Positions 33,638 through 62,740 of a DNA stretch of 64,000 bases are shown in pieces. Origin of the DNA: Candidatus Pollutiaquabacter aromativorans (GTDB lineage Bacteria > Bacteroidota > Bacteroidia > AKYH767-A > 2013-40CM-41-45); NCBI GenBank assembly GCA_049177215.1, contig CP185379.1, positions 352,957 through 416,956 on the forward strand, in the 5' to 3' direction. Each line of letters begins with the position of its first letter. Within the stretch, counting starts at the first letter, position 1. A program made the position numbers and the translations under genes. The notes beneath the pieces are model-generated. The model saw nothing but the letters and a program-made list of their open reading frames with translations. It had not been told where the DNA came from and ran no database searches.

Positions 33638-33661
33638 TCGGCCTGAAGCGTATCATGAAAG

Positions 33662-33702
33662 GAAGTCCTTCCGCTACGGCGGAGGGACTTCTTTTTTTTA
33701 TT
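33662..33702 (+). terminator. intrinsic terminator after the repeat-protein gene
   Basis: Stem 'gaagtccttccgc' / 'ggcggagggacttc' with one bulge. It is followed by a T8 tract 'ttttttttatt'. Confidence 0.7.
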
Positions 33703-33839
33703 CCATAGGAATCAAGTCTAGTGTCCGATTTTATCAGGAATCGATAGAAAAGCTTGCACAGGCGACGATTTTTTTCTATATTGAAAGCTCTACGGAAACC
33801 GTTACTGCGGCGGTTTTCCGCTAATTCACCTACTCCCAC

Positions 33840-39692: not shown

Positions 39693-39820
39693 TTAGATTT
39701 GAAAGGTCGTAATGGTCGGCCGGAGGTTTACCAAGTAAATTGTCGCGTTTGCATAAAAACCGGACTTGGGCATGGTTTTTCTTCTGAAATCAACGATATT
39801 TAGGAGAAACGCCCCCTCGA

Positions 39821-42800: not shown

Positions 42801-45415
42801 TTAGCGCGGTGTATTGCGGAACACCACTTGCGCTTACGGCATCTTCGGGCGGCGGAACAACCTTTGGCTGGTCGCCTGCAACGGGATTGAACGCTACCAC
42901 CGGCTCTTCTGTTAGTGCGAGTCCGGCGACCGCCACGACGTATACTGTCACCGCGACTGCTACTAATGGTTGTACGATTAGTGGTACTATTCCCATTACG
43001 ATCGGAACCCCGCTGACGGTTAGTGTCGGCGCGGACACTACACAGGGATGTGCTCCCTTCGGCTCTGTACTGCGGGCTTGTGTCAATCCGACCTTCAATA
43101 CCTATACGTTGGATTCTGCTGCCACCGATTATTCACCAGTCGGATCAACCGCTTTCATTACACTGTCCAGTGCAGATGATGGCGATGCGGCGGTCAATCT
43201 GCCGTTCCCGTTCAACTTCTATGGCGTGAATTACACCTCGATACGCGTTGGATCGAATGGCTACATCGGGATGGGAACCACCCCGGTGACTTCCCTGGCC
43301 AATCAGGCGCTTCCTTCAGCCACGGCGCCTAACGGAATCATCGCCTTGTGTTGGGACGATCTGCTTCACAGCGGACTGGCCACGGGCATCGATACATTTA
43401 CGGTGGGAACCGCGCCCAATAGAAAGTTTGTCGTCCGGTATAACGCAGGAGCGGTCGCGTTCTACAACATCGGATCACAAACCGGTTCCTTGGGCGGTAA
43501 GATCGTTTTGCATGAAGGAACCGGAGTCATCGAAGTCAGGATCGATGTGATGAATAAAGGGGTACGGATCGATAACCAGACGCTTGGAATCGAAGATGCG
43601 GCCGGATTGGCGGCTGTAACGCCTCCGGGAAAGAACAATCTGGATTGGCTTCAATCGACACCACGAACCTATCGGTTCACTCCTGCTGCACAACAGTGCA
43701 ACAACACCGGTATCTCGTTTGACTGGACACCGGCTGCCACCCTGCATGCAACAAACCTGGACACCGCTGTTATCACAGGACTGAACAGCACAACCATTTT
43801 TACCGTAACCGCGTCGAACGCTTCGGGATGCAGTGCTCAGGATACGGTGCAGATATTCGTATCGCCACAAGCTCCTACACCGGTGATTTCGAGCAGCGGA
43901 CCGCTTTCCTTCTGCCCGGGCGGAAGCGTGACGTTAACTTCTTCCAGTACGGCTTTCCCGAATTACTGGAGTACCGGCGAAACAACGAATTCGATAACAG
44001 TAAATACTACCCAGACCGTTTCGGTTTACAGTTCGGATGCTTTTTGTCCTTCCGGCCGGGCTTATGTCGATGTCGTGCGATTCGATACGGTTCCGCCGCT
44101 GATCAACGTCTCCGGCGGCGGACTCGCGCTATGTTCGGGCAACCGTGATCTGCTCTCCGATGGCGCACCGCTCTTCGTAGCCTGGAGTTGGAGCACCGCC
44201 GAAACCTCTCAGCAAATCACGATCATGAATCCCGGGACCTATGCAGTGGCCGCTACGGATACCAATGGCTGTGTAACGCATGCGGAGATAACGTTCACGG
44301 CAGGTGTCGCTCCGGTGGCCCCTGTGATCTCCACCTTGAGTTCGCTCAGTGTATGCAACAATGAATACGTGACGATCGATTCCGATATTCCGGATGGGCT
44401 CACCTGGTTCCCGACGTTTGACAATACACCGTCGATCGCCTACAACCTTTCACCTCCGGGAGTATACGACTTCTACGTTTCGCGCGACTCCCTGGGTTGT
44501 ACCTCGGAGTCCAATCACCTGGTCTTTACGGTCAATCCGACTCCGGAGGTATATTTCTTCCTGCCGGCGGACTCCGCCTGTGTGGGCGATGTCATCACCC
44601 TCAACGGTTCGGGGTTGAGCAATGTGTCTTCTATCAGCTTTAATGGCACTCCGGTCAGCGTATTCTCGGTGCTCGATGATTACACCATTCAGGTTACTGT
44701 TCCAGTCGGCGCTACGTCGGGAGGCATCACCCTGACCGATGGTTCCACCGGTTGCGCGGGTGTAAGTCCGCTGTTTTCGATTAAGGAAGTTTGCGGAGTC
44801 AGTGTAAACCTGAAGGTTTGGTTGCAGGGGTATTGTTTGCCAACTCCGTTCGGAGGTAGTATGATGCCGGTCTGGACGCAACAAATGCGATCAGATTTAG
44901 GCAATGGCAATCCGGGTTCTCCAGCAGGCACGGAAACCGATTTGGTCTATGTCGGACTCTACGACGACAATCATGTACTGCAATTTGAAGATTCGGTCAT
45001 GATCATGACGGATGGAACCGGTAGGATCGATCTCCCGGCGGCTTTCAATGGCAATAGTTATTATCTCCTGATCAAGCATCGTAGTCATGTCGCAATCCGC
45101 AGCGCCGGCTTGGTACTTATGAGCCCGGTAGTGACCTATGATTTCACGCTGTCAGAAAGTCAAGCGGATAATAACGGATCAAACTTCGGTATGACCCAGC
45201 TCTCCAATGGCGAGTGGGCGATGTGGGTAGGTGATGTTACCCAGGACGGATTTGTCGGGGGTGACGACGTGGGAAGTGTCGACAATGACAACTTGCTCGG
45301 GATTTATCTGGAGTATAGAAATTCGGATGTGACCGGGGATGGCTTCGTTGGTGGAGATGATGTCGGTGCGGTTGACAACAATAATCTCTTGGGGGTCTAC
45401 TATTTCTATCCCTGA
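39821..45415 (+). CDS. giant secreted multi-repeat surface protein (1864 aa), paralog C; the last ~560 aa are about 70% identical to paralog A
   Basis: Signal peptide 'CSWLLALLLFSNLVQAQ'. It has the same N-terminal module as B ('FSFTINSNNYSNFWVNANGLFGFG...GTSPNRKLVVEWRV'). The C-terminus is 'WAMWVGDVTQDGFVGGDDVGSVDNDNLLGIYLEYRNSDVTGDGFVGGDDVGAVDNNNLLGVYYFYP'. Confidence 0.85.
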   Translation: MNRKRYPMKAACSWLLALLLFSNLVQAQPANTYTFTTGTGVSLETLSAPVVLVGSGVDDTPASAASAIGFSFTINSNNYSNFWVNANGLFGFGTSPSTSYSNSITAPPSFPALMPWWDDMGTGTNGNVQYQLLGTSPNRKLVVEWRVRNIGETGNYTKTYQLWLFESNFAIQFVYGTGTAGSSASIGMSTSATEYQSVTTTSNTASTTTPANTQSTFPASGRYYLFTPASCAGTPSPGNTLASANPVCSGSALTLSMSTPPSSIGITYRWQTSPDGSTWTNVAGAAGNNVTLSANPTVATYYRCRVTCSASGLNGFSTPLLVNVVNCYNMQNGSLSNVCSARFYDSGGLAAAYANAESYTLTIYPTPGNLLRVQFNSFVTESGYDYLSIYNGNSTAAPLLLNTSGSTVPGTYTSSATDGSLTFRFTSDISITYAGWDALLSCVSLPVCSGTPTAGTISGTSGLCAGGTTTLTASGFSSGVSGLSFQWEESDDNGVADPWANVVGGSGANTNSYTSPALSVSRYYRMRVTCSNGGGTATTSGYLVTANPLPTVAIAANPGTTICGPGAINLSASGADTYNWSPASGLNATTGASVTATLSSSTSYTVVGTITATGCTATQSVSLNLLPGYSVNATANPVNICSGGSAQLNAVAQMPSSSYLLNPISPALVSTAGFATGPASDDAIVGPITLPFNFNFFGSPEDSLYISSNGHIIFGNSAPASQLAGLNIPDATDPDNVIALCWADLNPGSSGSVTYGTVGTAPNRIFVISWNAVPFYLQSGSNVTGQIQLYEGSNIVEVHISVINRGASTSNTVLGIENATGSSGLAPASRNGGTWSVSSPEAWRFSPYVPGYTYAWTPSTGLDNPTIPMPIASGVSGTTVYTVTVTADGVCTATATALVNEGVALSATASALPASVCEGQSTQLSGAASGGGEPFAYSWSDGVTEIGTTQLLTITPPVGSSTYYLTVADACGGSTSTTVVVTALPGPVLALQPVSAVYCGTPLALTASSGGGTTFGWSPATGLNATTGSSVSASPATATTYTVTATATNGCTISGTIPITIGTPLTVSVGADTTQGCAPFGSVLRACVNPTFNTYTLDSAATDYSPVGSTAFITLSSADDGDAAVNLPFPFNFYGVNYTSIRVGSNGYIGMGTTPVTSLANQALPSATAPNGIIALCWDDLLHSGLATGIDTFTVGTAPNRKFVVRYNAGAVAFYNIGSQTGSLGGKIVLHEGTGVIEVRIDVMNKGVRIDNQTLGIEDAAGLAAVTPPGKNNLDWLQSTPRTYRFTPAAQQCNNTGISFDWTPAATLHATNLDTAVITGLNSTTIFTVTASNASGCSAQDTVQIFVSPQAPTPVISSSGPLSFCPGGSVTLTSSSTAFPNYWSTGETTNSITVNTTQTVSVYSSDAFCPSGRAYVDVVRFDTVPPLINVSGGGLALCSGNRDLLSDGAPLFVAWSWSTAETSQQITIMNPGTYAVAATDTNGCVTHAEITFTAGVAPVAPVISTLSSLSVCNNEYVTIDSDIPDGLTWFPTFDNTPSIAYNLSPPGVYDFYVSRDSLGCTSESNHLVFTVNPTPEVYFFLPADSACVGDVITLNGSGLSNVSSISFNGTPVSVFSVLDDYTIQVTVPVGATSGGITLTDGSTGCAGVSPLFSIKEVCGVSVNLKVWLQGYCLPTPFGGSMMPVWTQQMRSDLGNGNPGSPAGTETDLVYVGLYDDNHVLQFEDSVMIMTDGTGRIDLPAAFNGNSYYLLIKHRSHVAIRSAGLVLMSPVVTYDFTLSESQADNNGSNFGMTQLSNGEWAMWVGDVTQDGFVGGDDVGSVDNDNLLGIYLEYRNSDVTGDGFVGGDDVGAVDNNNLLGVYYFYP

Positions 45416-45597
45416 GAGATCCGAAAAATGTTTATCCCAGGTCAGGGTGTCCAATACCCTGCAGGATCGATTGGCAACCTGATTTGGAAGTTGTATTTAG
45501 AGGGTAAGAAAAAATAGCGATTTCAGGGTTTTTGCCCTGAATTGCAGGTTATTCATGATCCCAATGTTGAAAAAGGACTTGTCTTTCTAGCAAAAAC

Positions 45598-46881
45598 ATG
45601 TTAAATTTATCGCAAATACGAATTACTATGAGCAATGCCAAGAGGGCGAGTTTGATCGCTATTTTAATGACCTGTCTTAATCTGGGCAGTTTGTTTGCGC
45701 AGGATCCAGGCTTCTCGGTGTCGGTTGGAAACGCCCATTATATCGCACCCAACTTGTTTGAGTTTGATATCATGATCCAGTCCACTGGTTCACCGGCGAC
45801 GTTCAACTTCCGTACTTTCCAGGGTGGATTATTTATTAATCCTTCGTGGAAAGGAGCAGGAACCATTACCGCCAGTTATGTCTCCGGATCCACTCAGTTG
45901 AGCGGGCTTGGTTACAATGGTTCGATTCAGTGGAATCCTTCCGACAACTTCATCAACCTTTCGGTCAATACCGGAGTCCGTAACGGCGGCTCGCCTCAGG
46001 CAACGGTCATTGGTACTTCGCCGGTTCGTGTCATGACGATGCGGTTGTTCAGCACCGCCAATTTCAATTGCTCGACTTCGCCTAACCTTCAGTTTAATTA
46101 CAACCAATCTGTTACTCCGCTTCGGTTGCGTTCCGCTGTATCGTGGAGAACGGCCAACCCGGATGTCAATTACAACCTGCATTACCCGGGTCGGACTTTT
46201 GGCGGAACCGCAGTATTCAACGGCGAGACCTGGTCGCTGTCGGATGCAGATGGACGATCGCCTGTTAACAGCGCGGCCAACCCGTCGTCCTGTCCTTTGC
46301 AGATGAACCTGGTGACCTTCATCCAGGCATTTGTCAATCCTTCTACCGGCTTGATGGATAATTCAGGTTCTGGCCTGTTGAACGCGCTCGGCGAATCACC
46401 CAATTCCATGGACGTTGATACCATTACGGTCACCCTGGTGAACTCTTCCACCCTTGCCGATGTAGAGTCGCAGAAGGTGATTTTGAAATCAGACGGGTCA
46501 TCGCTGACCTATTTTACCGGTTCTGCAATTGGTACGAGTTGTTACATCCGCGTGAATCACCGGAATTCGCTCGAAACCTGGAGCGCGGGTCCTGTGAACA
46601 TGGCTGCAAATACAACCTATAATTTCTCCAGTAATCAGAATCAAGCCTACGGCGACAACCTCGTACAGGTAGCCGGTGTTTGGGCCATGTATTCCGGTGA
46701 TGTCAATCAGGATGGTTTCATCGGTGGTGATGACGTTGGCGCGGTAGATAATGATAACCTGGCTGGTTTGTTCTTCACGTATACGACCAGTGACATCAAT
46801 GGTGATTTGTTTGTGGGTGGCGATGATGTCGGCGTAGTGGATAACAACAACCTGGCTGGCGTCTACTTGCTCCGCCCCTGA
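45598..46881 (+). CDS. short paralog D (427 aa): signal peptide, a ~150-aa N-terminal domain shared with the 28092 protein, and the family C-terminal module with twin dockerin-like loops
   Basis: The likely true start is 'MSNAKRASLIAILMTCLNLGSLFAQ' at 45628. The C-terminal half 'SCYIRVNHRNSLETWS...VWAMYSGDVNQDGFIGGDDVGAVDNDNLAGLFFTYTTSDINGDLFVGGDDVGVVDNNNLAGVYLLRP' aligns with the A/B/C C-termini. Confidence 0.8.
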   Translation: MLNLSQIRITMSNAKRASLIAILMTCLNLGSLFAQDPGFSVSVGNAHYIAPNLFEFDIMIQSTGSPATFNFRTFQGGLFINPSWKGAGTITASYVSGSTQLSGLGYNGSIQWNPSDNFINLSVNTGVRNGGSPQATVIGTSPVRVMTMRLFSTANFNCSTSPNLQFNYNQSVTPLRLRSAVSWRTANPDVNYNLHYPGRTFGGTAVFNGETWSLSDADGRSPVNSAANPSSCPLQMNLVTFIQAFVNPSTGLMDNSGSGLLNALGESPNSMDVDTITVTLVNSSTLADVESQKVILKSDGSSLTYFTGSAIGTSCYIRVNHRNSLETWSAGPVNMAANTTYNFSSNQNQAYGDNLVQVAGVWAMYSGDVNQDGFIGGDDVGAVDNDNLAGLFFTYTTSDINGDLFVGGDDVGVVDNNNLAGVYLLRP

Positions 46882-46913
46882 TGAAAAAGTAAATCCCCAC
46901 GAGAATATCAAAA

Positions 46914-46947
46914 GCCTGCCAGAGGTTCTTCTGGCAGGCTTTTTTAT
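46914..46947 (+). terminator. intrinsic terminator after paralog D
   Basis: Perfect stem 'gcctgccag'(46914-46922) / 'ctggcaggc'(46931-46939), followed by 'ttttttatttgg'. Confidence 0.7.
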
Positions 46948-47349
46948 TTGGGGTAAAGGAAGCTTGGGAGTGGGTGGGAGCTTGAATCTTCGTTCAGGCG
47001 ATTTGTTCAGTGATTGAATTCGCGGTTGCCGAAAGCAGGGTTTGGCGTTTCCATGCACTCGGCACTTCCGCGATGGTTGCTTGAATCTCAGAGTAGGGAA
47101 ATCGGCTTACAATGTATATCCACAAATTGCAGTCGACTGTGTGGCCCCACGGGTGGTCTGTCGAAGTGAACGGATCCGTGGCGAGTTTAGCCAGGTTGCG
47201 GTTCAACTAACAGGGGATGAATGAAGTTGGCCGATTGATTCTGCCGCATCGTATGTTAATCTTATCATATCCATTTCGATCGACTTTAAGCCGATTGCGC
47301 TGACCTGGAGTGTTCGGTCGGGGCAAGGCCGGTTAAGTGTAAATGAAAA

Positions 47350-47374
47350 GGGGGTTGCAGGATATGCAACCCCC
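47350..47374 (-). terminator. intrinsic terminator for smc (minus strand)
   Basis: 'gggggttgca' / 'tgcaaccccc' perfect 10-bp stem. On the minus strand it is followed by 'ttttcattt'. It lies 55 nt past the smc stop. Confidence 0.55.
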
Positions 47375-47428
47375 TTCGGGATGTCGGCTGACAAATTAGC
47401 TGTTGCCCGGAACAGGAGCGGGCATTGC

Positions 47429-50400
47429 TCAGACCGTCTCTTCCATTTCCGTCAGATCCACCGGCACGACCTGCGTGACACCGGTCTCGACCATGGTGAT
47501 GCCGTACATGATGTCGGTGGCGGCCATGGTGCGCTTGTTGTGCGTGATGATGATGAACTGCGAGTCCTTGGAGAACTTCCGGATGATGTTGTTGAACTTG
47601 TCGATGTTGGCGTCGTCGAGCGGCGCGTCCACTTCGTCAAAGATGCAGAACGGAGCCGGCTTCAGCAGGTAGATGCCGAACAGGAGCGCGGTCGCGGTGA
47701 GGGTCTTTTCTCCACCCGACAACTGGGAGATCGACAAGGGGCGCTTGCCTTTCGGTTTGGCCACGATCTGGACGTCCGAATCCGTGGGATTGTCCGGATT
47801 GAGCAGGACCAGGTCGCAATCGTCGTCCTCGGTAAACAGGGAACGGAAAACGCGAATGAAATTTTCCCGGATGGAGTGGAAGGCCGTCATGAAGTTCTCG
47901 CGGGCCGTCTTCTCGATCTCTTCGATGGTCTGCAAGAGTGATTCCTTGGCCTTGATCAGATCGTCCTTCTGGGTGGTGATGAAGGTGTGGCGTTCCTGGA
48001 TCTCGTTATACGCTTCAACCGCCATGGGGTTGATCGGACCGTACGTGTCCAGCTGGTGTTTCTGCTTGGCGACTTTTTCCCGCAACACCTCTTCCGTCCA
48101 GTCGGGTGAAGGTTCGCGTTCGAGGATGTCGTTGATGTCGATGTTGAATTCGACCGACAGGCGCTCCTTGAGCGAGTTGAGCTGGATCTTCAATTCGGTC
48201 GTACGTTCCTTGATGGCCTGAGCCAACTGGTCGCACTGCTCGCGCTGGTGACGGATCTGCCGGATGCGGTTCTCCAGTTCGTCGATCTCGCCGCGCGAAC
48301 GGTAGAATTCGGTTTCGACGAGGCTGACCGATTTCTCGAGCTCTTCCTTCTCGGCATAGAGTTCCAGCAATTGTCCGTCGAAATCGGTGGACGATTGGAG
48401 CAACTCCCGGATCTGTTCCTGGATGTAATCCAATTCGGCCACATTGGCCGTGATGTTGCGTTGCAGGTTGCCTTCCAGTTCGACCTTGTACCCGTGATCC
48501 CGGATGATGCCGGCGATCTTGTTCTGCTGCTGGATGCAATGGATGTTGTGCTGGTTGTATTCCGTACCGGCACGGTTCATCTCGTCGGTCAGCGTGTTGA
48601 ACTCGGTTTGCAGGGCCGACAGATGGCCGGTGACCTCATCAAACCGCACCCGGAGCTGCAGGATGTGCTCCTGGTAGCTCAGGTTGTCCTGCTGCAGGGT
48701 GTTGTCGATCTCGTGCAACTGGGCATTCAGGTTGTCGAGCAGTTTCTGGTTGTTGTCGATACCGGCTTGCAGGTGTTCCGTCTTGTGGTGCAACGAAGCG
48801 AACTCCTGTACCGCCCGGTTCAGCTCTTGCTGGAAGTGCTTTTTCCGGCCGGTGAGTTCGTCGCGTTCGCGCCGGGTAGCCTGTAAAGCCGCCTGCAGAC
48901 GATCACGCTCCTGGCGGTGGGTCTCCAGGGAGGCGGTCAATTGTTCGATCTCTTTGGAAAGCGTATCCAGATGCTTGGCGCGTCCGATGCGCTTTCCGTC
49001 GAAGAGGCCGACCGAGCCGCCGGAAAGGGCGTGGCGGGTACGGCAGTATTTGCCGTTGCGGGAAATGAAGATGCGGTCCTCCTGGCTTTCACGCAGGAAG
49101 GGTGTGCGGTCCTCGTCTTCCACGACGATGTATACGTTGCGCAGGAGGTGATTGCAAAGGGCCTGGTAGCGTGGCTCTACGTCGAGGATGGAGAGGGCAG
49201 GGATGGTGCCTTGCGGGCCGTTGGAATCGGTAGAGGCGCTTCCTTCGAAATTTTGGAGGATGAAGAAATTCGCGCGGCCTTTCGCGGCTTGTGCCAGCAG
49301 GTTAACCGCCTGGCTGGCGGCTTCAATATCCTCGATCACGAAATAGTTCATGAACGGATCGAGGTAATTTTCAATTGCCGTCTTGAACTCGGCCTGGCAG
49401 CTCAGGATTTCCGAGAACAGGGGAGCGCGAAGTGCGTCCGGCGCGTTCTTGCGCAGGTAACGCAGCGATTCCGGATAACCCTCGAGGTTCTCGACGAGGC
49501 TCTTGGTGAGGTTGAATTCATTCTGGCGGGCGTCCAGCTTACGACCCTCGGCCATGAGCGACTCATTCGCCTTTTTCAATTCTTCTTCGTAACGCGTCAG
49601 GTCGGCGCCGATCTGTACTTCGCGTTCAAGCAGCGAATTCAACTCCTGTTCCCGGTTGTCTTTGTTGAGGCGGCTCTGGTCGGTATCGGAGCTGATGCGT
49701 CCGAGTTCCTGCTCTTTGTGGCTGGTGTCGGAGCCCAGTCGTTCGATCTCCTTCTGAAGGGATTCTTTCCGCGCCTGGGTGACCGCGAGCGTTTTCTCCG
49801 TTTCATGCATCGCCGTCTGGATCGACTGCGATTCGGTGGTGTAGCGGTGGATGTCGCTCTTCATTTCGTCGTGGCGGGAACGCACGACGTCGAGCGCGGT
49901 TTTCATTTCCTGCAACTGTGCCTGGAGCTGGTCAAGCAGCGATTCCTCCTGCAAACGATCGGTTTCCGACTGGCGGATCTGGTCCTGAGTCGTCTGCAGA
50001 TTGGCGCGATCGGAAGAGATCTGCTGCGTCAGGGTCTGCTCCTTGTCCTGGAGGTACTTCAGTTTTTCATTACTGACCTTCTTGTCGTTTTCCTGAGAGC
50101 GGATCGTGTCGACTTTCAGATTGAGTTTCTTTTGTGACTCCGTCAGTTCCTTCTCGCGATCGAGTGCGAGCAGTTTCTTTTGCTGTAGTTCGGCTTCACT
50201 GGTATCCAGTTGGGTATCCAGCGCGACCTTTTGTTCCACCTGCTGGACTTCCTGCTGCTGCAGTTCGTCGAATGTCTGCTTGCTGCCGGACAAGGTGAAA
50301 ACCGCCAGTTCGGTACTCAGTTCTTTGTATTGTTCCTTGAGCCGGTAGTAACGCTCGGTTTTCTTTGATTGCGATTCGAGCGATTTCATGTTCCGCTCGA

Positions 50401-50992
50401 TCTCGAACAACAGGTCGTTGACCCGGTTGAGGTCGCCTTCGGTATCCTCGAGTTTCTGGAAGGTCTGCTTCTTACGGATCTTGTACTTCGAGATGCCGGC
50501 AGCTTCCTCGAGGAGATTCTTGATCGCGTTATTCTTATCGTTGAGGATCTCGTCGACCATCTTCAATTCGATGATGGCGTAGGAGTCCGAACCGATACCC
50601 GTGTCCAGGAAAAGTTCGGTAATGTCCTTGAGACGACACGTAACCCCGTTGAGCAGGTATTCGCTTTCGCCTTCGCGGTAATAGCGGCGGGATATCGTGA
50701 CGGTGGAATACTCCGTCGGGAGGATATTCTTGGTGTTTTCAAATGTCAGGGAGACTTCGGCGACGTTCGCGGCTTTCCGGCTCTTGGTGCCGTTGAAAAT
50801 GATGTTCTCCATCTTTTCAGAGCGCAGCATCCGCGTCTTCTGCTCGCCCAGTACCCAACGGATGGCATCCACCACGTTGGATTTGCCGCTACCGTTGGGA
50901 CCTACGATCGAAGTGACCCCCTTGTCGAAGTGGATGGTCACCTTCTCGCCGAAACTCTTAAATCCCTTGATTTCTAGTGTTGTAAGACGCAT
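47429..50992 (-). CDS. smc: chromosome segregation protein SMC
   Basis: 1187 aa. The N-terminal Walker A region is '[44 protein letters not shown]'. Long coiled-coil and hinge regions follow. The C-terminal signature/Walker B region is '[39 protein letters not shown]'. Confidence 0.92.
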   Translation of the reverse strand: [1187 protein letters not shown]

Positions 50993-51336: not shown

Positions 51337-54300
51337 ATGGGACGAAAGCTATACGTACTCCTTCTATTGCTCCTTTGCCTCTGCGGCGTCAGCTATGCGC
51401 AGACCGGTGAGATCCGTGGTCGTGTCACGGAAAAAGGCGGAGCCGAAGGAGTTCCGTTCGCCAGCGTGGCTGCCATGCTCAACGGTGTTCAGGTCCAGGC
51501 GACACTGACGGATTTTGACGGTAACTATGTCATCAAGCCGTTGAACCCTGCGAAGTACGATGTCAAGGTGACCTGTGTCGGTTACACGGCCAAAGAAACG
51601 CGAGGCGTTCTCGTCACGACCGATAAGGCCGCTTTCGTTTCTTTTGAAATGACGAAGGGTGTGGAGTTGAAAGCAGTTGAGATCACGGAATATACCGTTC
51701 CGCTGATTGATAAGGGTTCGCCTTCGACCAAGAAGACCGTTACCTATGAAGAAATTCAGGCGGCTCCGACACGCGACGTCAACTCGCTTGCCTCTACAAC
51801 CGCCGGTGTGTATCAAAAGGACGAAGGTGGAGCGCTGAACATCCGCGGTTCGCGTGATGATGCAACCACGTACTTTGTCGACGGTGTGCGCGTTCGTGGC
51901 GGTACCGGTCTTCCCCAGCGTGGTATCGAACAGATCACGGTAACGACCGGTGGTTTGGAAGCCCAATACGGTGACGTTACCGGTGGTGTGATCGCGATCA
52001 CTACCCGCGGTGCTTCTCCGGTTTACAGCGGCGGATTGGAATTCGTGACTTCCGAGTTCCTCGATTCGTATGGCTATCGCCTTGCCACCGGTTCGGTATC
52101 CGGACCGATTTATACCAAGCGCGACTCAGCAGGCAAGAAGTTCGGACAACCGTTGGCAGGATTCTTCCTGGCGGCCGAATATCAATACGACAAGGATCCT
52201 TCGCCTTCTTCCATTCCGATCTATCAGGTGAAGGACGATATCCTGGAAAGTGCGAAGTCGAGCCCGTTGGTGCGTGACCCGAGTGGTTTCACGTATATCC
52301 ACCGTTCACACTACTGGACCTACGACAGTTTGGATAAGGTGAAAGCCCGTCCGAACGTTTCGGCGGATGCGTATCGTTTCAATGGTCGTTTGGATCTTCA
52401 ACCCGCCAAGAACGTTACGGTCGCTTTCGGTGGTTCCTATGAGAGGTCCAAGAGTCGTGATTTCATCGACATCTATTCGCTGATGAACTATGACAACAAC
52501 CCACAGACCATCAATACCAATTGGCGCGCCTGGGGTCGTATTACACAACGATTCGTTCCTGAGACCAAAGAAGGTGCTTCGTCCGCACTCAAGAGTGCTT
52601 ACTATTCCATTCAGGCGGACTATTCGAAAAACCTTTCGACCAGCCAGGATTACCGTCTGAAGGACGACATTTTCCGGTATGGACACGTAGGTAAATTCAC
52701 CACTTACAGCGTTCCATTCTACCTCGGCGAAGCGATCACCCGCCCGGGCCAGTCGGATAGCATTGTATTTACCCAGATCGCCAACTTCGATACGCTCTAC
52801 GACTACCAGGCGAGCAACGACAACCCGGACATTTCTGCCTACACGACCCAGTATTACGATCTGACCGATCCGCTCGGCACACCGGGTTATCAGGATTCTT
52901 ATGGTACGCTGCTCGTCCGCGGCGCGCTGGTGAATGGTGATAACCGGAACCCGCTCAACGTCTATGGACTTTGGGCTACCACCGGTCGTCTCCGTAACTT
53001 CTACGGCGTGACCGATAACACGCAGTTCCGCCTCACGGCACGCGGCTCCGTCGATATCAAGAACCATAACATCGTCGCCGGTATCGAATACGAACAGCGC
53101 GCTGACCGCGGCTGGTCGGTCAATCCGAGCAACCTCTGGTCGCTGATGCGCCAGTTGGCCAATGGTCGCTTCACCGGATTTGACACAACAACTGCTGTTA
53201 TCACGTCCACAACATCGGGCGGTACTCCAATTACCTTTATTACTTATCCGAACGCTAACTATAGCCCAACTACCAATCTGGATGGACAAGTCGCTCCTGG
53301 TTTTTTTGAAAAGGTTCGGGATCACCTGGGAATAGCTTATACGGATACCATTCAAATTGACGCCCTTGACCCTTCCCAGTTATCGCTGGACCTTTTCAGT
53401 CCGGATGAGTTGCTTGATTTCGGATTCGTCAACTACTATGGCTATACGTATACCGGTGAAAAACTCACCGGGCAGCCTGCGTATGAAGATTACTTTATCA
53501 AGAAAGACAGCAAGAACAACTACCTGCGCGAGGTCGATGCATTCCGGCCGAATTATGTTGCCGGTTACATCCAAGATCGATTCACGTTTAAGGATATTAC
53601 TTTCAACGTTGGTTTGCGTGTGGATCGTTTCGATGCAAACCAAAAGGTGCTTCGGGATAAGTATCTGCTGTACCCGACTTACACGGCCGGTGACCCGGCG
53701 GTGCTGGATAAAATCCCCAATGCGGTTATCCCCAGCAATATCGGGTCCGACTTTGCAGTGTACGTAAACAACGTTCAGAATCCAACAGCTATTGTCGGTT
53801 TTCGTGATGGTGACCAATGGTATAATGCCGAAGGGACTCCGATAACCGATCTTTCTCCCTTGCTTGATAATGGAACCGGAGGAAGCGGAATTCAGCCTTT
53901 CGTCAAGAACTATTCTGACGTACAACAAAGCATTTTCCGACCTGAAGTGTTTACTGACTATTCTCCTCAGATTAACCTAATGCCGCGTATCGCGTTTTCA
54001 TTCCCGATTTCAGACGAGGCGATTCTGCGTGCGCATTACGATGTATTGACGCAGCGACCCCAGAATAGTGCGCTTCTTCGCTTGAATCCGGGTAGTTATG
54101 GCTCACTGGCACGTGGTATTTCCGGTACTATCTCCAATCCGGATCTGAAACCGGAGCGTACAGTCGAGTACGAAGTGACCTTCGAGCAACGATTAAGCAG
54201 AAGCTCTGCACTCTCCATCGCCGCCTTCTATCGTGAATTGCGTGAATCAGATCCAGATCATCAACGTTCAGTACGCTTACCCGATCACGTATTCGACCTA

Positions 54301-55060
54301 CGGCAACATCGACTTTGGAACGGTCAAAGGCCTTTCCTTCGCGTATGACCTGCGCCGTACGAATAACGTCCGCATGAACTTCAGCTACACCCTGCAGTTC
54401 GCGGATGGTACCGGTTCGAGCCCCTTCACTTCCGCCGGCGTGTTGGCGCAGCAGGGACAGACCAACCTGCGTCAGCCCCAACCTTTGAGCTTCGATCAAC
54501 GCCATACCTTCGTCGCGACCTTTGACTACCACTATGGACGAGGAAAAGATTACAATGGTCCGGTGATGTGGGGACGTCAGGTGCTTGCCGAAGCTGGGCT
54601 GAACCTGATCCTGCGTGCAGGTTCCGGTACTCCTTATTCACGTCAGTCCAACATCACGCCGACTGCTGATTTCACCTCAACGGCCAACTCCCGATCGGTG
54701 CTGACCGGCTCGATCAACGGTTCCCGTTTGCCCTGGCAGTTCCGTATTGACGCCCGCGTAGACAAGAACTTCGAGATCAAGATGGGTAAGAAGCAGGATG
54801 GGGAAGCCCGCAACCCGGTGGCCGCCAACATCTATTTACTCGTACAGAACGTGCTCGATGCGCAGAATATCCTGGGCGTTTACGCCGCTACCGGCGATCC
54901 CGCCGACGATGGTTATCTCAGCTCACCCGGCGCGCAAGCCTTCATCGATGCAAAAGTCAACCCGCAGTCCTATATCGACTTGTATGAGATTGCCCAGAAC
55001 AATCCGGGGAATTATCAGTTACCACGTCGTATCCGCCTGGGTCTTCAGTTGAACTTCTGA
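51337..55060 (+). pseudogene. TonB-dependent-receptor-like outer-membrane protein with an N-terminal carboxypeptidase-regulatory-like domain, interrupted by one apparent frameshift near 54235-54250
   Basis: ORF 51337..54348 has the signal peptide 'LLLLLLCLCGVSYAQ', a CarbopepD_reg-like beta-sandwich ('GEIRGRVTEKGG...DGNYVIKPLNPAKYDVKV') and a plug-like region ('ALNIRGSRDDATTYFVDGVRV'). ORF 54233..55060 in the next frame supplies the barrel C-terminus ending 'RIRLGLQLNF'. Confidence 0.65.
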
Positions 55061-55100
55061 TCATAATTATTCCATTCGTTAACAATCCATCCGCGATAGC

Positions 55101-58100
55101 ATGATGAACAAGTTTGTCAAAACCACGCTCATTCTCCTGGCTGTAGCTTTCAGCGCACAGGCCCGGCAGAATGTTGGTCAGACGAGCACGAGCAACGGGA
55201 GTGGGGGATCGGGTTCCGGCCGGATCTTCGCCGGCTGTACCCCGTCCAAGTCCCGTGCAGACCTCGATATCAACAACGTCCGTACGCCCATCTGGATCAA
55301 CGGCGATATGTGGTGGGACCTCGTCGGTAATGCCGAGTACGAAGTGCCGAAAGGTTCAGGAAAGAACTCCCTGTTCGCCGGTGCCATCTGGATCGGCGGT
55401 AAGGACGCTGCCGGTAACCTGAAGGTTGCGGCCCAAACCTACCGTCAGTCGGGTTCGGACTTCTGGCCCGGACCGGTGGATACCCGTGATGCTACCATTA
55501 CTGCGGACGTTTGTTCGCAGTATGACAAGCACTGGAAGATCACCAAGGCGGAGGTTAAGGACTTCAAGGACTACTACGACCTCAACGGAACCGCTGCAGG
55601 ATATCCGGTTTCGGATGTGATCAAAACCTGGCCTGGTAACGGTGACCCTTCGAAAGGGCAGGATCAGTTCCTCGCTCCGTTCGTGGACCGCGATAACGAT
55701 GGATTCTACAACTGGGAGGCGGGTGATTACCCGAAGTATGACTATTCCTCGACACCGGATTGCTCGGATCGTAACGTCCTATTGGGCGATCAGACCATCT
55801 GGTGGGTGTTCAATGACGTTGGAAACATCCACACCGAAACTGAATCACAGTTTGCGGTCGGACTGGAAATTCGCGGACAGGCGTTCGCCTTCTCGACGAC
55901 CAACGAGATCAACAACATGACCTTCTATCGTTACCAGATCATCAACCGGTCTTCCTCCTCGCTGAACGAAACGTATTTCGGCGCGTGGGTGGATCCGGAT
56001 CTGGGCAACTATGTGGACGACTACGTCGGTTGTGACGTCACCCGTGGTTTCGGTTATTGCTACAACGGCGACGCGGACGACGACGGTGCGTTGGGTTATG
56101 GTGCCAATCCTCCCGCGATCGGTATGGACTTCTTCGAAGGTCCGGTGGCCGATCCAACAGACGGTATTGACAACGACCGTGACTCCCTGATCGATGCTGC
56201 CGATACCAACCAGATCGGCGGTGAGCAGATCATCATGTCGAAGTTTCGTTTATTATAACAACGACGGATCCAACATCGGTAACCCGAACAACGCGCAACA
56301 GTACTACAACTACCTGCGCGGAATCTGGAAGGACGGCTCTCCGCTGGTTTACGGCGGAAACGGTTATCAGACTTCCGGTGCTGACTCTTGTGATTTCATG
56401 TTCCCGGGCGATACCGATCCGAACGGCTGGGGTACCAACGGCACTCCGCTGAGTCAGTTGTTCCCCTGGTCGGAAACCGAACCGACTCCGGGCGGTACAC
56501 CGAACCAGCCGGATGACCGTCGTTTCCTCCAGTCTGCCGGTGCATTCACCCTGCAACCGGGTGCCGTCAATTACATCACGACCGGTGCTGTTTGGGCCCG
56601 CGCTTCTTCCGGTGGCCCCCTGGCATCCGTGAAACTGCTGCGCATCACCGACAACACCGCTCAGGACCTGTTCAACAACTGCTTTAAAGTGTTGGATGGT
56701 CCGGATGCGCCGAACCTGGTGATCCGGGAATTGGATCGTGAAGTGATCTTCTCGATTGTCAACCCAACCTCCTCCAACAACTACCGTGAACTGTATGCGG
56801 AAGTGGACAAGAAAGCCATTGACAATGGTTTCACAGGCTCCCAGTTCACCTTCGAAGGCTATAAGATCTTCCAACTGAAGGATGCATCGCCGTATCGGTG
56901 ACCGACCTCACGGATGCCGACAAAGCCAGACTCGTATTCCAGTGCGACATCAAGAATGGTGTAAGCCGGATCGTCAACCAATACCTGCAAGCTGAAACGA
57001 CCACCTTCCTTCCGGTCGTTGAGGTGGAAGGAGCGGATGAGGGCTTGAAGCATTCGTTCCGCCTTACCACGGATGCATTCGCCACCGGTGACCCGAACAT
57101 GGTCAATCATAAGACGTACTACTTCATGGCGATTGCGTACGGCTATAACAAGGACCAGGAAGTATTCGATCCTTACGAAAGCGCACTCGGTAAACCCTAT
57201 CTCCAGGGACGTCGTGGCGCTGATGGTGGTCCGGTGAAGATCTTCACCGCCATCCCGCACATCCCGGCTCCGGAAGCGCAGGGCCTTGTGCTCAACACCT
57301 CCTATGGTGATGGCCCGGAGATCCAGCGTATCAACGGTGTCGGTAATGGTTACAACCTGCAGTCGGATCGACTGACGATGGACCTCAAGCAAGACCAGAT
57401 CGATAACATCATCTTCAATGCTTCCAACCCGCAGGTGGCTATTCCGGCTCCGGTCTACCAGCGTGCACGCGGACCGGTCGATATCCGGATCTATGACCCG
57501 GTCAAGGTTGCTCCCGGTGAGTATGTCCTGTTCCTTCAGGATACGGTTACCGCTACCGGAAAATGGAAACTGCGTAATGTGACCACTGGCCAAGAGTATG
57601 AATCAGAGAAGACACTCGAGTTCCCCTACGACCAGTTGTTCCCCGACTATGGCTTCTACATCAGCATGAACCAGGTCAAGTCGCCCGGCGAAACGCCGAC
57701 CGACGGAAACGGTTTTGCGGAGGGAACGATTTCCTATTCGGACGCGAACAGCCGTTGGTTGTCGTTCGCTCAGGACATCGATAACTTCACCGCATTGAAC
57801 TGGATCCGTGCCGGCAATACGGATGGTGTGGATCTGACCGCGCAAGGTGAGTTCATCGACGGTGCCGGTTTCTTTGAAAAAGTACTGAACGGCTCCTGGG
57901 CTCCTTATCGTTTGACGAATACGGACGTTTCCGGCGGTGCGATCGCTCCGGCTCCCGGATACAGCACCAGTGCTGCGCGTAACCAGGCTCAACTGAAGTA
58001 TCTGCCGGGCGTTGACATCGTCTTCACTCCGGACAAGAGCAAGTGGAGCCGTTGCGTGGTATTCGAAATGCAGGGCGACCGCAATAAATCGGAAGGCCGT

Positions 58101-59096
58101 CAGTACAAGAACCTGATTCGCAAGCATCCTTCGCTCAATCTCGACGGAACCTACAGCACGACCGATTCCGGTTTCTCCTGGTTCCCCGGTTATGCCATCA
58201 ATGTGGAAACCGGCGAGCGGTTGAATATCGCCTTCGGAGAAGATTCCTACCTCAATCCGGATAGCGGATATGCCGGCCAGACGGGCGCGGACATGAAGTT
58301 CAATCCGACGACCACCCTGGTCAACGACAGCCTGGAAGTCATCGCCGGTGGCCGTCACGTAGTGTATGTCTTCGGCCATACCGATGTGGAACTGCCGGAC
58401 GGTGTTACCGGTAACGACTCGATTTACAAGAGCCCGGCCTATGATGGTTGCCAGTACATCTATGATCTGCTGTGGCCGATCACGACGCAGCCGCTGGCTA
58501 CTCCGGGTCGTCCCTTCCCGAAAGCCTGGGCTGATTGCCAGTGGGTGGGCATTCCGATGGCTGCGCCGGGCGCTACCTGGCTCGCCAATACGGCAAAAAT
58601 CAGACTTCGTGTTGCACGTCCTTACCGTCAGGTTGAGTTTGATTCTAATGTCACTGAAAACAACTTCTTCCCTTACTACAAGTTCAATACGAACGACTTG
58701 GTCAGTAAGGTGAATCAAAATGATGTTGCCAAGAATGCTCTGGATTTGGTGAGTGTAGTGCCAAACCCCTATTATGCATACTCCATGTACGAGAAGAATC
58801 AGTTGGATAATCGAATCAAGATCACCAACCTGCCTTCTCGCTGTACCATTTCGATCTTCACCCCGTCGGGTACCCTCGTCCGGAAATTTAACCGCAATGT
58901 TTCAGCGGATAATACATCCGGTGCTGTCTATCCCAATCTGAACCTTGATACATCGCTGGAGTGGGATCTCAAGAACACGAAAGGAATACCTGTTGCGAGC
59001 GGTATGTACATCATTCATGTTGATGCACCTGGAATTGGAGAACGTACTGTGAAATGGTTCGGCGTAATGCGCCCGCTTGATCTTGATACCTTCTGA
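55101..59096 (+). pseudogene. porU: T9SS C-terminal signal peptidase PorU candidate (~1330 aa), read as three ORFs because of two apparent frameshifts (~56235 and ~56885)
   Basis: Signal peptide 'LILLAVAFSAQA'. ORFs 55101..56258, 56194..56901 and 56898..59096 are contiguous in successive frames. The C-terminus has a CTD-like fold signature ('VVPNPYYAYS...CTISIFTPSGTLVRKF...GMYIIHVDAPGIGERTVKWFGV'). The assignment rests mainly on size, this CTD-like end and the position immediately upstream of porV. I did not verify a C25 catalytic dyad. Confidence 0.55.
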
Positions 59097-59134
59097 CCCC
59101 ACTTCACACGCACCGACACAGAAAAACACGCACT

Positions 59135-60197
59135 ATGAAAACTCGCTATATCGGATCGTTCCTTCGCGTCGCGCTGGCTGCTCTCTTGCTTCCGGCAGGC
59201 GTGCAGGCGGGTAACCCCGACCGTGCCGGCCAGGCTGGGGCCTCTGAGCTCCTGATCAATCCCTGGGCACGCTCGAATGGATGGGGCGGAGCCAACTCAG
59301 GCTCCATCCGCGGCTTGGAAGCACAGTTTCTCAACGTTGCAGGAACCGCGTTCACCAAGAAGACGGAAGCCATCTTTGCCCATACCATGTACCTGGAGGG
59401 AAGTGGAATGGCGCTGAATGCGTTTGGCATCACGCAAAAAGCAGGCGAAGCCGGCGTCATCGGATTGTCCGTCGTTTCGTTTGATTTCGGCGATATTCCG
59501 GTTACGACGACCGAACAACCGGAAGGAAATATCGGTAACTACCGACCCGCAGTATATCAACATCGGGCTTTCGTATGCAAAGGTATTCTCCAACTCGATC
59601 TACGGTGGCTTCAACCTGAAGATCATCAACGAGAACATCGCCAACGTCAGCGCAAGAGGAGTCGCAGTTGATGCCGGTATCCAATATGTAACCGGTACCA
59701 ACGAAGACCGCGACAACATTAAGTTCGGTATCGCCCTGAAGAATGTCGGTACACCGATGAAATTCGGCGGCGACGGTCTTTCCGTTCGCCTGACAGCCCC
59801 GTCCGGCGCCTACCAGTACACGGTCGAGCAGCGCACACAAGGATTCGAGATCCCTTCGCTCCTGAATATTGGCGCGAGCTATGATTTCAGCCTCGCAAAA
59901 GATCATCGCCTTACCGCTGCCGCTAACTTCACCTCCAACTCTTTCACGCGTGACCAGATCGCCGGTGGACTTGAATATGCCTTCCGCGAGATGTTCATGA
60001 TTCGCGGTGGTTTTGTTTACGAAGACGGCATCACCTCCGACGACGATCGTACCACTGTTTACACCGGTCCTTGTGCTGGTGTGACGGTGGATGTGCCGAT
60101 GGGAAAGTCGGGTAAGAAGTTCGGTATCGACTACGCGTTCCGGGCTACCAACCCCTTCAACGGGGTGCATACCTTCGGCTTGCGTTTTACGCTCTAA
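59135..60197 (+). pseudogene. porV: T9SS outer-membrane shuttle protein PorV (LptO/PG27 family, FadL-like barrel), with one apparent frameshift near 59525-59535
   Basis: Signal peptide, then 'AGQAGASELLINPWARSNGWGGANSGSIRG'. The barrel continues in ORF 59418..60197 ('TTDPQYINIGLSYAKVFSN...GVHTFGLRFTL'). Confidence 0.65.
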
Positions 60198-60220
60198 AAA
60201 ACCGTATATTTGCATAATCG

Positions 60221-60258
60221 GACAAGACCCCGCACCAGCGGGGTCTTGTTCTGCTTTA
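60221..60258 (+). terminator. intrinsic terminator after porV
   Basis: 'acaagaccccgc'(60222-60233), loop 'acca', 'gcggggtcttgt'(60238-60249), then 'tctgcttt'. Confidence 0.6.
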
Positions 60259-61756: not shown

Positions 61757-62740
61757 ATGCGACAAAGTACGGAAAATATACTCGTTCGCTGGGGCTGGAT
61801 ACTCAAGCTCCTGATCGCCGCTGTCGCCTTTACGTTTATTTACTGGCAGGTGGTTCGACGGGAAGGACTGGCAACACTGGTAGCTGTTGCACGCGATTCC
61901 TGGAGTGAGCCGCACAACCGGGTACTCCTCTCGGCCGTGTTGCTCGGCATGCTGATCAACTGGGCGATCGAGGCGTTCAAATGGAAACGGGTCTTGCGCC
62001 CATTGGAGCAGGTCTCGCTCCTGAAGGCGTTGGAAGCGGTCTTCTCCGGACTCTCCGTCAGCTTTTTTACCCCGAATAGAGTAGGGGAATACGCGGGTCG
62101 CGTTTTCCATCTCGTGAAAGCCGATCGCCCACAGGCGGTTTTGGCAACCATATTGGAAAACGTGAGCCAGCTCGTCATCACGCTCTTCTTTGGCGGTTTC
62201 GCGTTGGCTTATGGTGTGCAGGACCTGATTACGACCCAATCCTATCTGATGAGTTCCTTCCGGATCTTGTCCGTGGTGGGCGCCTGCTTTCTCGTGCTTG
62301 CGTTTATCTATTCCGGTGTATTGCAGGCAATGTTCGTGCGACTGCGTTTCTCGGGCAGGTGGCTGCGCGTCACCGGGATTCTGGAGCGCTATACCAAGGC
62401 GCAGATGATCGAACTCTTGTTGCTCTCGGCCTTACGTTATTTCATCTTCACCGGACAATTCTTCCTGCTCCTGCACGTGTTCGGTGCCCCCTTACCGTAT
62501 GGGGTCGCGATGCTCCGGATCGCCCTGACGTACCTGGCCATGTCGGTCATTCCTTCGATCGCGCTGACGGAACTCGGTGTACGAGGCGCGTTGGCCGCCT
62601 GGGTCTTTCAGCCGGTCACCGAGCAGGTGAGCGGCGTACTGCTCGCGACATCCGCGCTATGGGTCATCAACCTGGTACTGCCCGCGCTCATCGGCCTCTT
62701 GTTCGTGTTTGATTTCAAATTCGTGAAGAAGCGTACATGA
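61757..62740 (+). CDS. polytopic membrane protein of the lysyl-phosphatidylglycerol-synthase-TM / flippase-like (UPF0104) family, commonly paired with a GT2
   Basis: 327 aa with about 8 TM segments. It is start-coupled to the downstream GT2 (ATGATG overlap). Confidence 0.45.
   Translation: MRQSTENILVRWGWILKLLIAAVAFTFIYWQVVRREGLATLVAVARDSWSEPHNRVLLSAVLLGMLINWAIEAFKWKRVLRPLEQVSLLKALEAVFSGLSVSFFTPNRVGEYAGRVFHLVKADRPQAVLATILENVSQLVITLFFGGFALAYGVQDLITTQSYLMSSFRILSVVGACFLVLAFIYSGVLQAMFVRLRFSGRWLRVTGILERYTKAQMIELLLLSALRYFIFTGQFFLLLHVFGAPLPYGVAMLRIALTYLAMSVIPSIALTELGVRGALAAWVFQPVTEQVSGVLLATSALWVINLVLPALIGLLFVFDFKFVKKRT

Follow-up and report, generated by a model that had tools for sequence, protein, structure and literature searches.

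Frame breaks in a three-gene outer-membrane operon of Candidatus Pollutiaquabacter aromativorans: very probably consensus artefacts of two merged alleles

Introduction

Are the frame breaks that interrupt three neighbouring genes of Candidatus Pollutiaquabacter aromativorans real? The question was addressed in a stretch of 64,000 nucleotides (contig CP185379.1, positions 352,957 to 416,956), here called the window, to which all coordinates refer. At face value, the breaks would give a free-living member of the Bacteroidota a crippled type IX secretion system (T9SS), the original prediction having named two of the genes porU and porV. PorU binds PorV, and PorZ binds PorQ.

Results

According to the open reading frame list of the window, the stretch holds three co-directional genes, each split between reading frames, and the layout is regarded as operon-like because the intergenic gaps are 38-40 nt. 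The features were as follows.

51337-55060, + strand: TonB-dependent-receptor-like gene (frames 51337-54348 and 54233-55060)
55101-59096, + strand: large gene (frames 55101-56258, 56194-56901 and 56898-59096)
59135-60197, + strand: PorV-like gene (frames 59135-59671 and 59418-60197)
60220-60251, + strand: strong hairpin of 14 bp, rich in G+C, with a T-rich tail after it (z = -5.3), likely the operon terminator

A terminator after the PorV-like gene had been foreseen, and this hairpin is its likely counterpart. The large gene had also been placed immediately downstream of smc, but smc (47429-50992) runs in the opposite direction, with the TonB-dependent-receptor-like gene between the two.

The first gene was matched by the Pfam models CarboxypepD_reg (E = 1.4e-11) and Plug (E = 5.7e-10), and TonB_dep_Rec_b-barrel is annotated on its intact orthologues, so that both the Plug domain and the beta-barrel of a TonB-dependent receptor are represented. 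Its product is predicted to be a TonB-dependent-receptor-like outer-membrane barrel composed of CarboxypepD_reg, Plug and barrel. With these domains, the large barrel and a length of ~1240 aa it resembles the SusC/RagA-like receptors and, presumably, the Oar-like ones, but it has neither a SusC/RagA model match nor an adjacent SusD-like gene.

By tblastn, full-length homologues of ~1270 aa aligned collinearly with the large gene through all three of its frames. The gene had been assigned to porU on the basis of its size, CTD-like end and synteny. Diagnostic of PorU is a catalytic domain of the gingipain type (Peptidase_C25) that contains a Cys/His dyad (PMC10202324). The PorU equivalog model of NCBIfam matched neither the intact 1330-aa orthologue at E <= 0.1 nor the window fragments at E <= 0.01, no Pfam match, Peptidase_C25 included, was returned for the large protein, no PDB chain was found at E <= 1 with a profile of 46 homologues, and PorU and gingipain were absent among the 50 Foldseek matches listed for a model of the protein with a pLDDT of 80.8. 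PorU was ruled out by these NCBIfam, Pfam, PDB (sequence and profile) and Foldseek searches. The C-terminal ~100 residues matched the PorZ C-terminus in an HMM search (E = 7e-5) and the PorZ and RemZ CTD structures in the fold search, and no structural match outside the CTD was present among the matches listed. The gene thereby has both a T9SS C-terminal domain and a PorV-type barrel neighbour, a PorV/PorQ-family gene lying 38 nt downstream. Such a combination is common to many proteins other than PorU. The product is a putative secreted protein of 1330 aa with a T9SS CTD, belonging to a conserved, uncharacterised family of ~1270 aa.

For the third gene, the intact 353-aa orthologue was scored against four models. 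The PorV/PorQ subfamily model NF033709 gave 150.5 bits (cut-off 90) over profile positions 3-325 of 326; the PorV equivalog NF033710, PorQ and PorV2 gave 68.6, 59.8 and 53.8 bits (cut-offs 250, 220 and 325), respectively. Membership of the PorV/PorQ family in the earlier PorV assignment was retained and equivalog PorV was given up, and the gene is predicted to encode a PorV/PorQ-family outer-membrane beta-barrel paralogue that is not equivalog PorV, PorQ or PorV2.

The pair is like PorU-PorV in that a gene for a T9SS-CTD protein of ~1300 aa stands directly upstream of a PorV/PorQ-family barrel gene, and differs in the large protein, which has no PorU equivalog, Peptidase_C25 or PDB profile match, and in the sub-threshold PorV score of the barrel. 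It is like PorZ-PorQ in the best matches of the C-terminal ~100 residues (the PorZ and RemZ CTDs, by HMM and fold) and, as in type-B cargo with PorP/SprF-like partners, in having a dedicated barrel gene of the PorV/PorQ family next door; it differs from PorZ-PorQ in the body of the large protein, which has no PorZ similarity, in a barrel below the PorQ cut-off, and in a conserved third partner, the TonB-dependent-receptor-like gene. The TonB-like, 1330-aa and PorV/PorQ-like genes together constitute a conserved, uncharacterised outer-membrane module, which was found in 56 of 81 genome loci.

For the frame breaks, the window was compared with five independent same-species assemblies (from ENA, from JGI and three NCBI MAGs; 93-95% nucleotide identity to the window), and all three genes were intact in all of them (1240, 1330 and 353 aa). 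A scan of genome contigs gave no match above 61% amino-acid identity, and a protein search none above 59%. Positions were defined at the codon level by alignment to these intact orthologues. Four breaks are present in the sequence as written, at 54243, 56241, 56886-56891 and 59545, no more than 15 nt from the places first estimated.

54243, + strand: one extra base; window CGTGAATCAG, the union of allele A CGGAATCAG and allele B CGTGATCAG
56241-56245, + strand: one extra base of ambiguous placement; window TCGAAGTTTCG, A TCGCGTTTCG, B TCGAAGTTCG
56886-56891, + strand: two extra bases; window GCATCGCCGTA, the union of A GC--CGCCGTA and B GCATCG--GTC
59545-59546, + strand: one extra base; window CCGACCCGCAG, the union of A CCGTCCGCAG and B CCGACCCCAA
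51752-59926, no strand: fine-scale A/B mosaic, the left limit marking the end of the comparison data

At 56241 the AAG of B is joined with the TTTCG of A, and the window carries the hybrid string AAGTTTCG; at 59545 the hybrid string is CGACCCGCAG. Over 12.2 kb, the four breaks were the only gap columns of the window against all five relatives; the extra bases were always in the window (net +1, +1, +2 and +1), and at every break, each at a clustered A/B polymorphism, bases of both alleles were present. Three of the four breaks fell at runs of at least two adjacent A/B differences, the vicinity of which makes up 10.9% of positions, and 59545 was the one without strictly adjacent differences; P was ~0.005 for at least three of four breaks near runs (calculated by hand from the 10.9% fraction) and 1.4e-4 for four of four near difference runs. 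Once the five bases were deleted, open reading frames of exactly 1240, 1330 and 353 aa were regained, with at most one residue matching neither A nor B; the first of these, the TonB-dependent-receptor-like protein restored by removal of base 54243, has 1240-aa orthologues in L001, L002 and L004.

The five assemblies fell into two haplotypes, A and B, which differ at ~11% of the aligned 12.2 kb, being 6-29% divergent across the operon and ~99% identical in the downstream flank. At 1195 fixed A/B differences the window carried the A base at 657, the B base at 535 and neither at 3, and its private bases numbered 5 in 12.2 kb. More than 110 haplotype switches were counted in the window (116-133 segments, 49 of them single sites), with a median inter-switch distance of 25.5 bp. 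L005, a natural-looking A/B recombinant, has 12 segments, one of them a tract of 620 bp, and recombination between A and B accordingly occurs in the species. Long clean haplotype runs in the window coincided with A/B divergence of 24-29%, at which cross-mapping of reads is unlikely, and the fine flipping and all four breaks coincided with divergence of 6-16%. Both haplotypes had dN/dS of 0.04-0.05, and strong purifying selection acts on both alleles. For an upstream extension of the comparison, exact matches to the proteins of 45598-46881, 16255-17724 and smc were sought, and none was found. The region 33.0-36.1 kb, compared with two other contigs, displayed long haplotype runs without gene indels, which is neutral with regard to strain collapse.

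The cargo gene 28092-33637 contains a further feature.

29139-31646, + strand: tandem array, 30.8 copies of 81 nt

Two units alone deviate in length, one of 82 nt at 29955-30036 and one of 85 nt (not 84) at 30850-30934, and they cause the two frame breaks of this gene. By comparison of units within the array, these breaks were found to be unions of unit variants, namely GGCACATGCCG from ACAG/CATG and GCTACCGTTC from ACC/TCG. The union-of-variants signature of the operon is thus repeated in an independent test of the collapse model. In a scan of metagenome contigs, those of close relatives matching the cargo protein started or stopped inside the array.

Discussion

The breaks are very probably consensus artefacts that arose when two coexisting variants of a single species were fused by the assembly, and the underlying genes are almost certainly intact in the organism. 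The species would carry two old alleles, A and B, of the three-gene outer-membrane operon, equal in length and both intact. Reads of both alleles would have been stacked on one draft, so that the consensus alternates between A and B site by site. Where polymorphisms are clustered, the two alleles can be placed as an insertion plus a deletion rather than as mismatches; the inserted bases of both may then have been retained, which would shift the frame by a net +1 or +2. The window sequence appears to be a long-read MAG, to judge from related accessions, and long-read MAGs from activated sludge are described by their authors as chimeric population bins (PMC8012365). As in such chimeric consensus sequences, haplotypes that occur together alternate along the window almost without private variation, indels lie at variant junctions where the alleles align ambiguously, and other assemblies have the genes intact; what differs from such sequences is the restriction of the effect to one operon and one tandem array. 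This confinement is explained by the strains being ~99% identical in the downstream flank examined and 6-29% divergent in the operon. The localised assembly indel problem raised earlier is in this way supported, the operon being the place at which one consensus was made from two deeply divergent alleles. Some of the mosaic could stem from true recombination.

It is improbable that the genes are genuine pseudogenes, that is, that a real recombinant strain carries four true frameshifts inactivating the operon. The breaks do stand in the sequence and inter-allele recombination is known in nature from L005, but the genes are intact in five of five other assemblies, dN/dS is 0.04-0.05, and the module is kept in 56 of 81 genome loci. 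Signs of decay are missing: stops and further indels are absent, and private substitutions number 5 in 12.2 kb. Recombination tracts would not alternate every 3-30 bp, and insertions built of both parental alleles are not a product of homologous exchange. With the genes intact in five same-species assemblies, the proposal of real pseudogenes leaving the cargo unprocessed is left without support.

Ordinary platform indel errors independent of strain mixing, such as homopolymer miscalls, would account for three extra bases that extend short runs (A to AA, TT to TTT and CC to CCC) and for L006, a related long-read MAG that is broken in the same genes at other sites. The runs are just 1-3 bases long, however, each of the six events in the window is a net insertion, lies at a multi-base variant site and holds both variants, and indels are absent from 4 kb of near-identical A/B sequence and from the giant open reading frames of the window (3227, 1950 and 1864 aa); this explanation is therefore considered very unlikely. 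Programmed ribosomal frameshifting or other non-standard decoding, which had also been suggested, was ruled out as next to impossible: a shift of +1 is seen at three of the four breaks, and the first frame of the large gene is regained after ~650 nt, but orthologues of 93-95% nucleotide identity read the same codons straight through at four of four sites, the more distant L006 breaks at other residues, and neither a slippery heptamer nor a shift site next to a stop was seen on direct reading of the sequence at the positions defined by alignment.

With the breaks taken as consensus artefacts, the crippled-secretion reading is wrong twice, the genes being intact in the organism and not porU/porV. 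More generally, in genomes derived from metagenomes, frameshifts concentrate at loci for which the strains present together have divergent alleles, and such artefacts have a signature that can be read without raw reads: wherever polymorphisms are clustered, bases of both alleles are combined, and private variation is absent. As regards function, the large protein may be exported by the T9SS and then held at the surface, its retained CTD being bound to the adjacent PorV/PorQ-like barrel after the model of PorU with PorV and of PorZ with PorQ; the holding of uncleaved CTDs by cognate PorV-like barrels has been proposed in a review (PMC10202324).

It is tentatively suggested that a real undescribed feature of the locus is a conserved module maintained as two ancient, equal-length, fully functional alleles in one species. 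Between the alleles dS is 0.7-1.5, versus 0.004-0.08 in flanking genes. Such a pattern would be compatible with balancing selection acting over a long time, or with alleles having been imported repeatedly, at a structure of the cell surface, for example one targeted by phages or predators. For research on the T9SS and the outer membrane, this dimorphic module, conserved and uncharacterised, offers a modest lead.

Organization of the operon and positions of the frame breaks

Three co-directional genes on the + strand, separated by gaps of 38-40 nt, were located at 51337-60197, and each of them was divided between reading frames, as follows.

51337-54348 and 54233-55060, + strand, first gene (TonB-dependent-receptor-like), two frames
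55101-56258, 56194-56901 and 56898-59096, + strand, middle (large) gene, three frames
59135-59671 and 59418-60197, + strand, third gene (PorV-like), two frames
60220-60251, 14-bp hairpin with a T-rich tail, 3' of the third gene, z = -5.3

The original prediction of four breaks and one terminator was correct, with the frames split in three genes and one hairpin behind them. Full-length homologues of ~1270 aa were collinear with the middle gene through all three of its frames, so that its breaks interrupt a single gene.

Comparison with intact relatives

The protein of 61757-62740, downstream of the operon, was encoded identically on contigs in 593 collection blocks, and five long contigs among these (from ENA, JGI and three NCBI MAGs) were used as the comparators. 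The three operon genes were intact in all five (1240, 1330 and 353 aa, respectively), which were 93-95% identical to the window. In the six-way alignment of 12.2 kb, gap columns were found at the four breaks only, where the window had one, one, two and one extra bases, respectively, relative to every relative. Deletion of bases 54243, 56241, 56886-56887 and 59545 restored ORFs of exactly the above lengths, in which one residue only, at a repair site, belonged to neither of the two haplotypes into which the relatives fell.

These haplotypes, A (L001, L003 and L004) and B (L002 and L005), were mutually gap-free. Their comparison began at 51752 and was extended by L001 and L002 to about 72.7 kb. 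Divergence was 6-29% over the operon and about 0-2% over 60.2-72.7 kb (at most 4.6% per 500-nt window); dS was 0.70-1.50 for the operon genes (dN/dS 0.04-0.05) and 0.004-0.076 for the flanking genes. The right-hand edge of the divergent block was sharp and coincided with the operon terminator.

The window as a mosaic of two haplotypes

The window proved to be a mosaic purely of the two haplotypes. At 1195 fixed A/B differences it had the A base at 657, the B base at 535 and neither at 3, and its private bases numbered only five in 12.2 kb. It was divided into 116-133 haplotype segments (49 of a single site), and the median distance from one switch to the next was 25.5 bp; L005 was divided into 12 segments and L004 into 3. 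Among the 12 segments of L005, a B-type MAG, was a 620-bp stretch of the large gene (L005:5500-6100, window about 57240-57860) with the exact sequence of haplotype A, apparently the product of natural allele exchange or else of coarse chimerism in the assembly. Long clean haplotype runs in the window were found at 24-29% A/B divergence, and the fine flipping and all four breaks at 6-16%. At 53172-53178, where the two haplotypes of the TonB-like gene diverge most, a run of 191 A sites was followed by one of 262 B sites; this single clean change could be either a haplotype switch in the draft-assembly path or a real recombination point.

Sequences of haplotypes A and B and of the window at the operon breaks
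54243: A CGGAATCAG; B CGTGATCAG; window CGTGAATCAG
56241: A TCGCGTTTCG; B TCGAAGTTCG; window TCGAAGTTTCG
56886-91: A GC--CGCCGTA; B GCATCG--GTC; window GCATCGCCGTA
59545: A CCGTCCGCAG; B CCGACCCCAA; window CCGACCCGCAG

At each break, A and B could be aligned as an insertion plus a deletion, and both inserted pieces were present in the window. Runs of at least two adjacent A/B differences occurred at three of the four sites; as only 10.9% of positions lay within 2 nt of such runs, P for at least three of four breaks was calculated as ~0.005.

Two more frame breaks were found in the cargo gene (28092-33637), both within its tandem array.

29139-31646, tandem array of 81-nt (27-aa) units, 30.8 copies, several unit variants
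29955-30036, unit of 82 nt, containing GGCACATGCCG, the union of unit variants GGCACAGCCG and GGCCATGCCG
30850-30934, unit of 85 nt (84 nt in related units), containing GCTACCGTTC, the union of GCTACCTTC and GCTTCGTTC

Only these two units broke the frame; five others were of 84 nt, an in-frame variant length. Because both breaks are again unions of two variants, all six breaks of the window share one signature. The short-read contigs of the relatives ended in the array, and hence none served as an external comparator across it. From the cargo-gene end to smc, the distance was about 7.5 kb in the related contig L087 (WBZP01000179.1) versus 13.8 kb in the window (33646-47429), so strains differ in the giant genes that their cargo clusters contain.

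Cause of the frame breaks

The frameshifts are very probably an assembly artefact, one of the readings originally offered, in view of the five intact relatives, the A/B mosaic and the union of both alleles at the breaks. Reads of two alleles would have piled on one draft only where they were similar enough to map, which would produce the observed confinement of flips and breaks to 6-16% divergence, and the consensus would have retained the inserted pieces of both alleles at insertion-plus-deletion sites. Long-read MAGs from activated sludge have been described as chimeric population bins (Singleton et al., PMC8012365), and we infer that the window belongs to such a MAG.

That the genes are real pseudogenes, as had also been proposed, is unlikely: they are intact in other assemblies, under strongly purifying selection and free of further decay, and insertions that combine both parental alleles are not a product of recombination. 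With generic platform errors it would be left unexplained why all events are net insertions located at multi-base variant sites, and why none occurred in the nearly monomorphic 60-64 kb or in the giant ORFs of the window. Programmed frameshifting, which falls under the non-standard decoding once suggested for a look, is excluded by orthologues in frame and by the more distant MAG L006, whose breaks lie at other positions. In this MAG of a related lineage (GCA_016702675.1), the same three genes with four breaks were located at L006:4527-13358, the large-gene product had about 59% protein identity and the DNA polymerase III alpha region had no called gene; a consensus problem of this kind probably affects its assembly as well.

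Identity and conservation of the three genes

CarboxypepD_reg and Plug domains were detected in the first gene, and the TonB-dependent-receptor barrel additionally in its intact orthologues. The middle gene had been labelled PorU, wrongly: neither the window fragments nor the intact 1330-aa orthologue matched the PorU model or Peptidase_C25, and a profile built from 46 homologues found no PDB chain at E <= 1, PorU having been crystallised (PMC10202324). With the AlphaFold model of a homologue (residues 174-1330, mean pLDDT 80.8), the Foldseek matches listed were only weak ones to generic beta-sandwich domains, plus the CTDs of PorZ (5m11) and RemZ (8gl8_D). On these searches, the product belongs to an uncharacterised family of T9SS-CTD proteins and is not PorU. 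The PorV label held at the family level (150.5 bits against the PorV/PorQ family model, cut-off 90) and failed at the equivalog level, the third gene being far under the cut-offs of PorV, PorQ and PorV2.

The same three genes in the same order were found in 56 of 81 loci of other Bacteroidota genomes. Large-gene copies with no detectable TonB-like or PorV-like neighbours were observed at L034, L039, L045, L047, L049, L059, L065, L068, L070, L071 and L079, and several genomes had two copies, e.g. JADKIZ01 (L039 and L069) and JANNEQ01 (L034 and L042); members of the family thus also occur as paralogues apart from the module.

Signal-peptide-like starts were read directly from the sequence in all three products. 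The CTD is retained in both PorU, which binds PorV, and PorZ, which binds PorQ; a role of cognate PorV-like barrels in holding uncleaved CTDs has been proposed (PMC10202324). By analogy with these pairs, the 1330-aa protein may be exported by the T9SS, and its CTD may be anchored to the adjacent PorV/PorQ-family barrel, beside the TonB-dependent-receptor-like protein. The dimorphic, conserved and uncharacterised three-gene module is a modest side lead.
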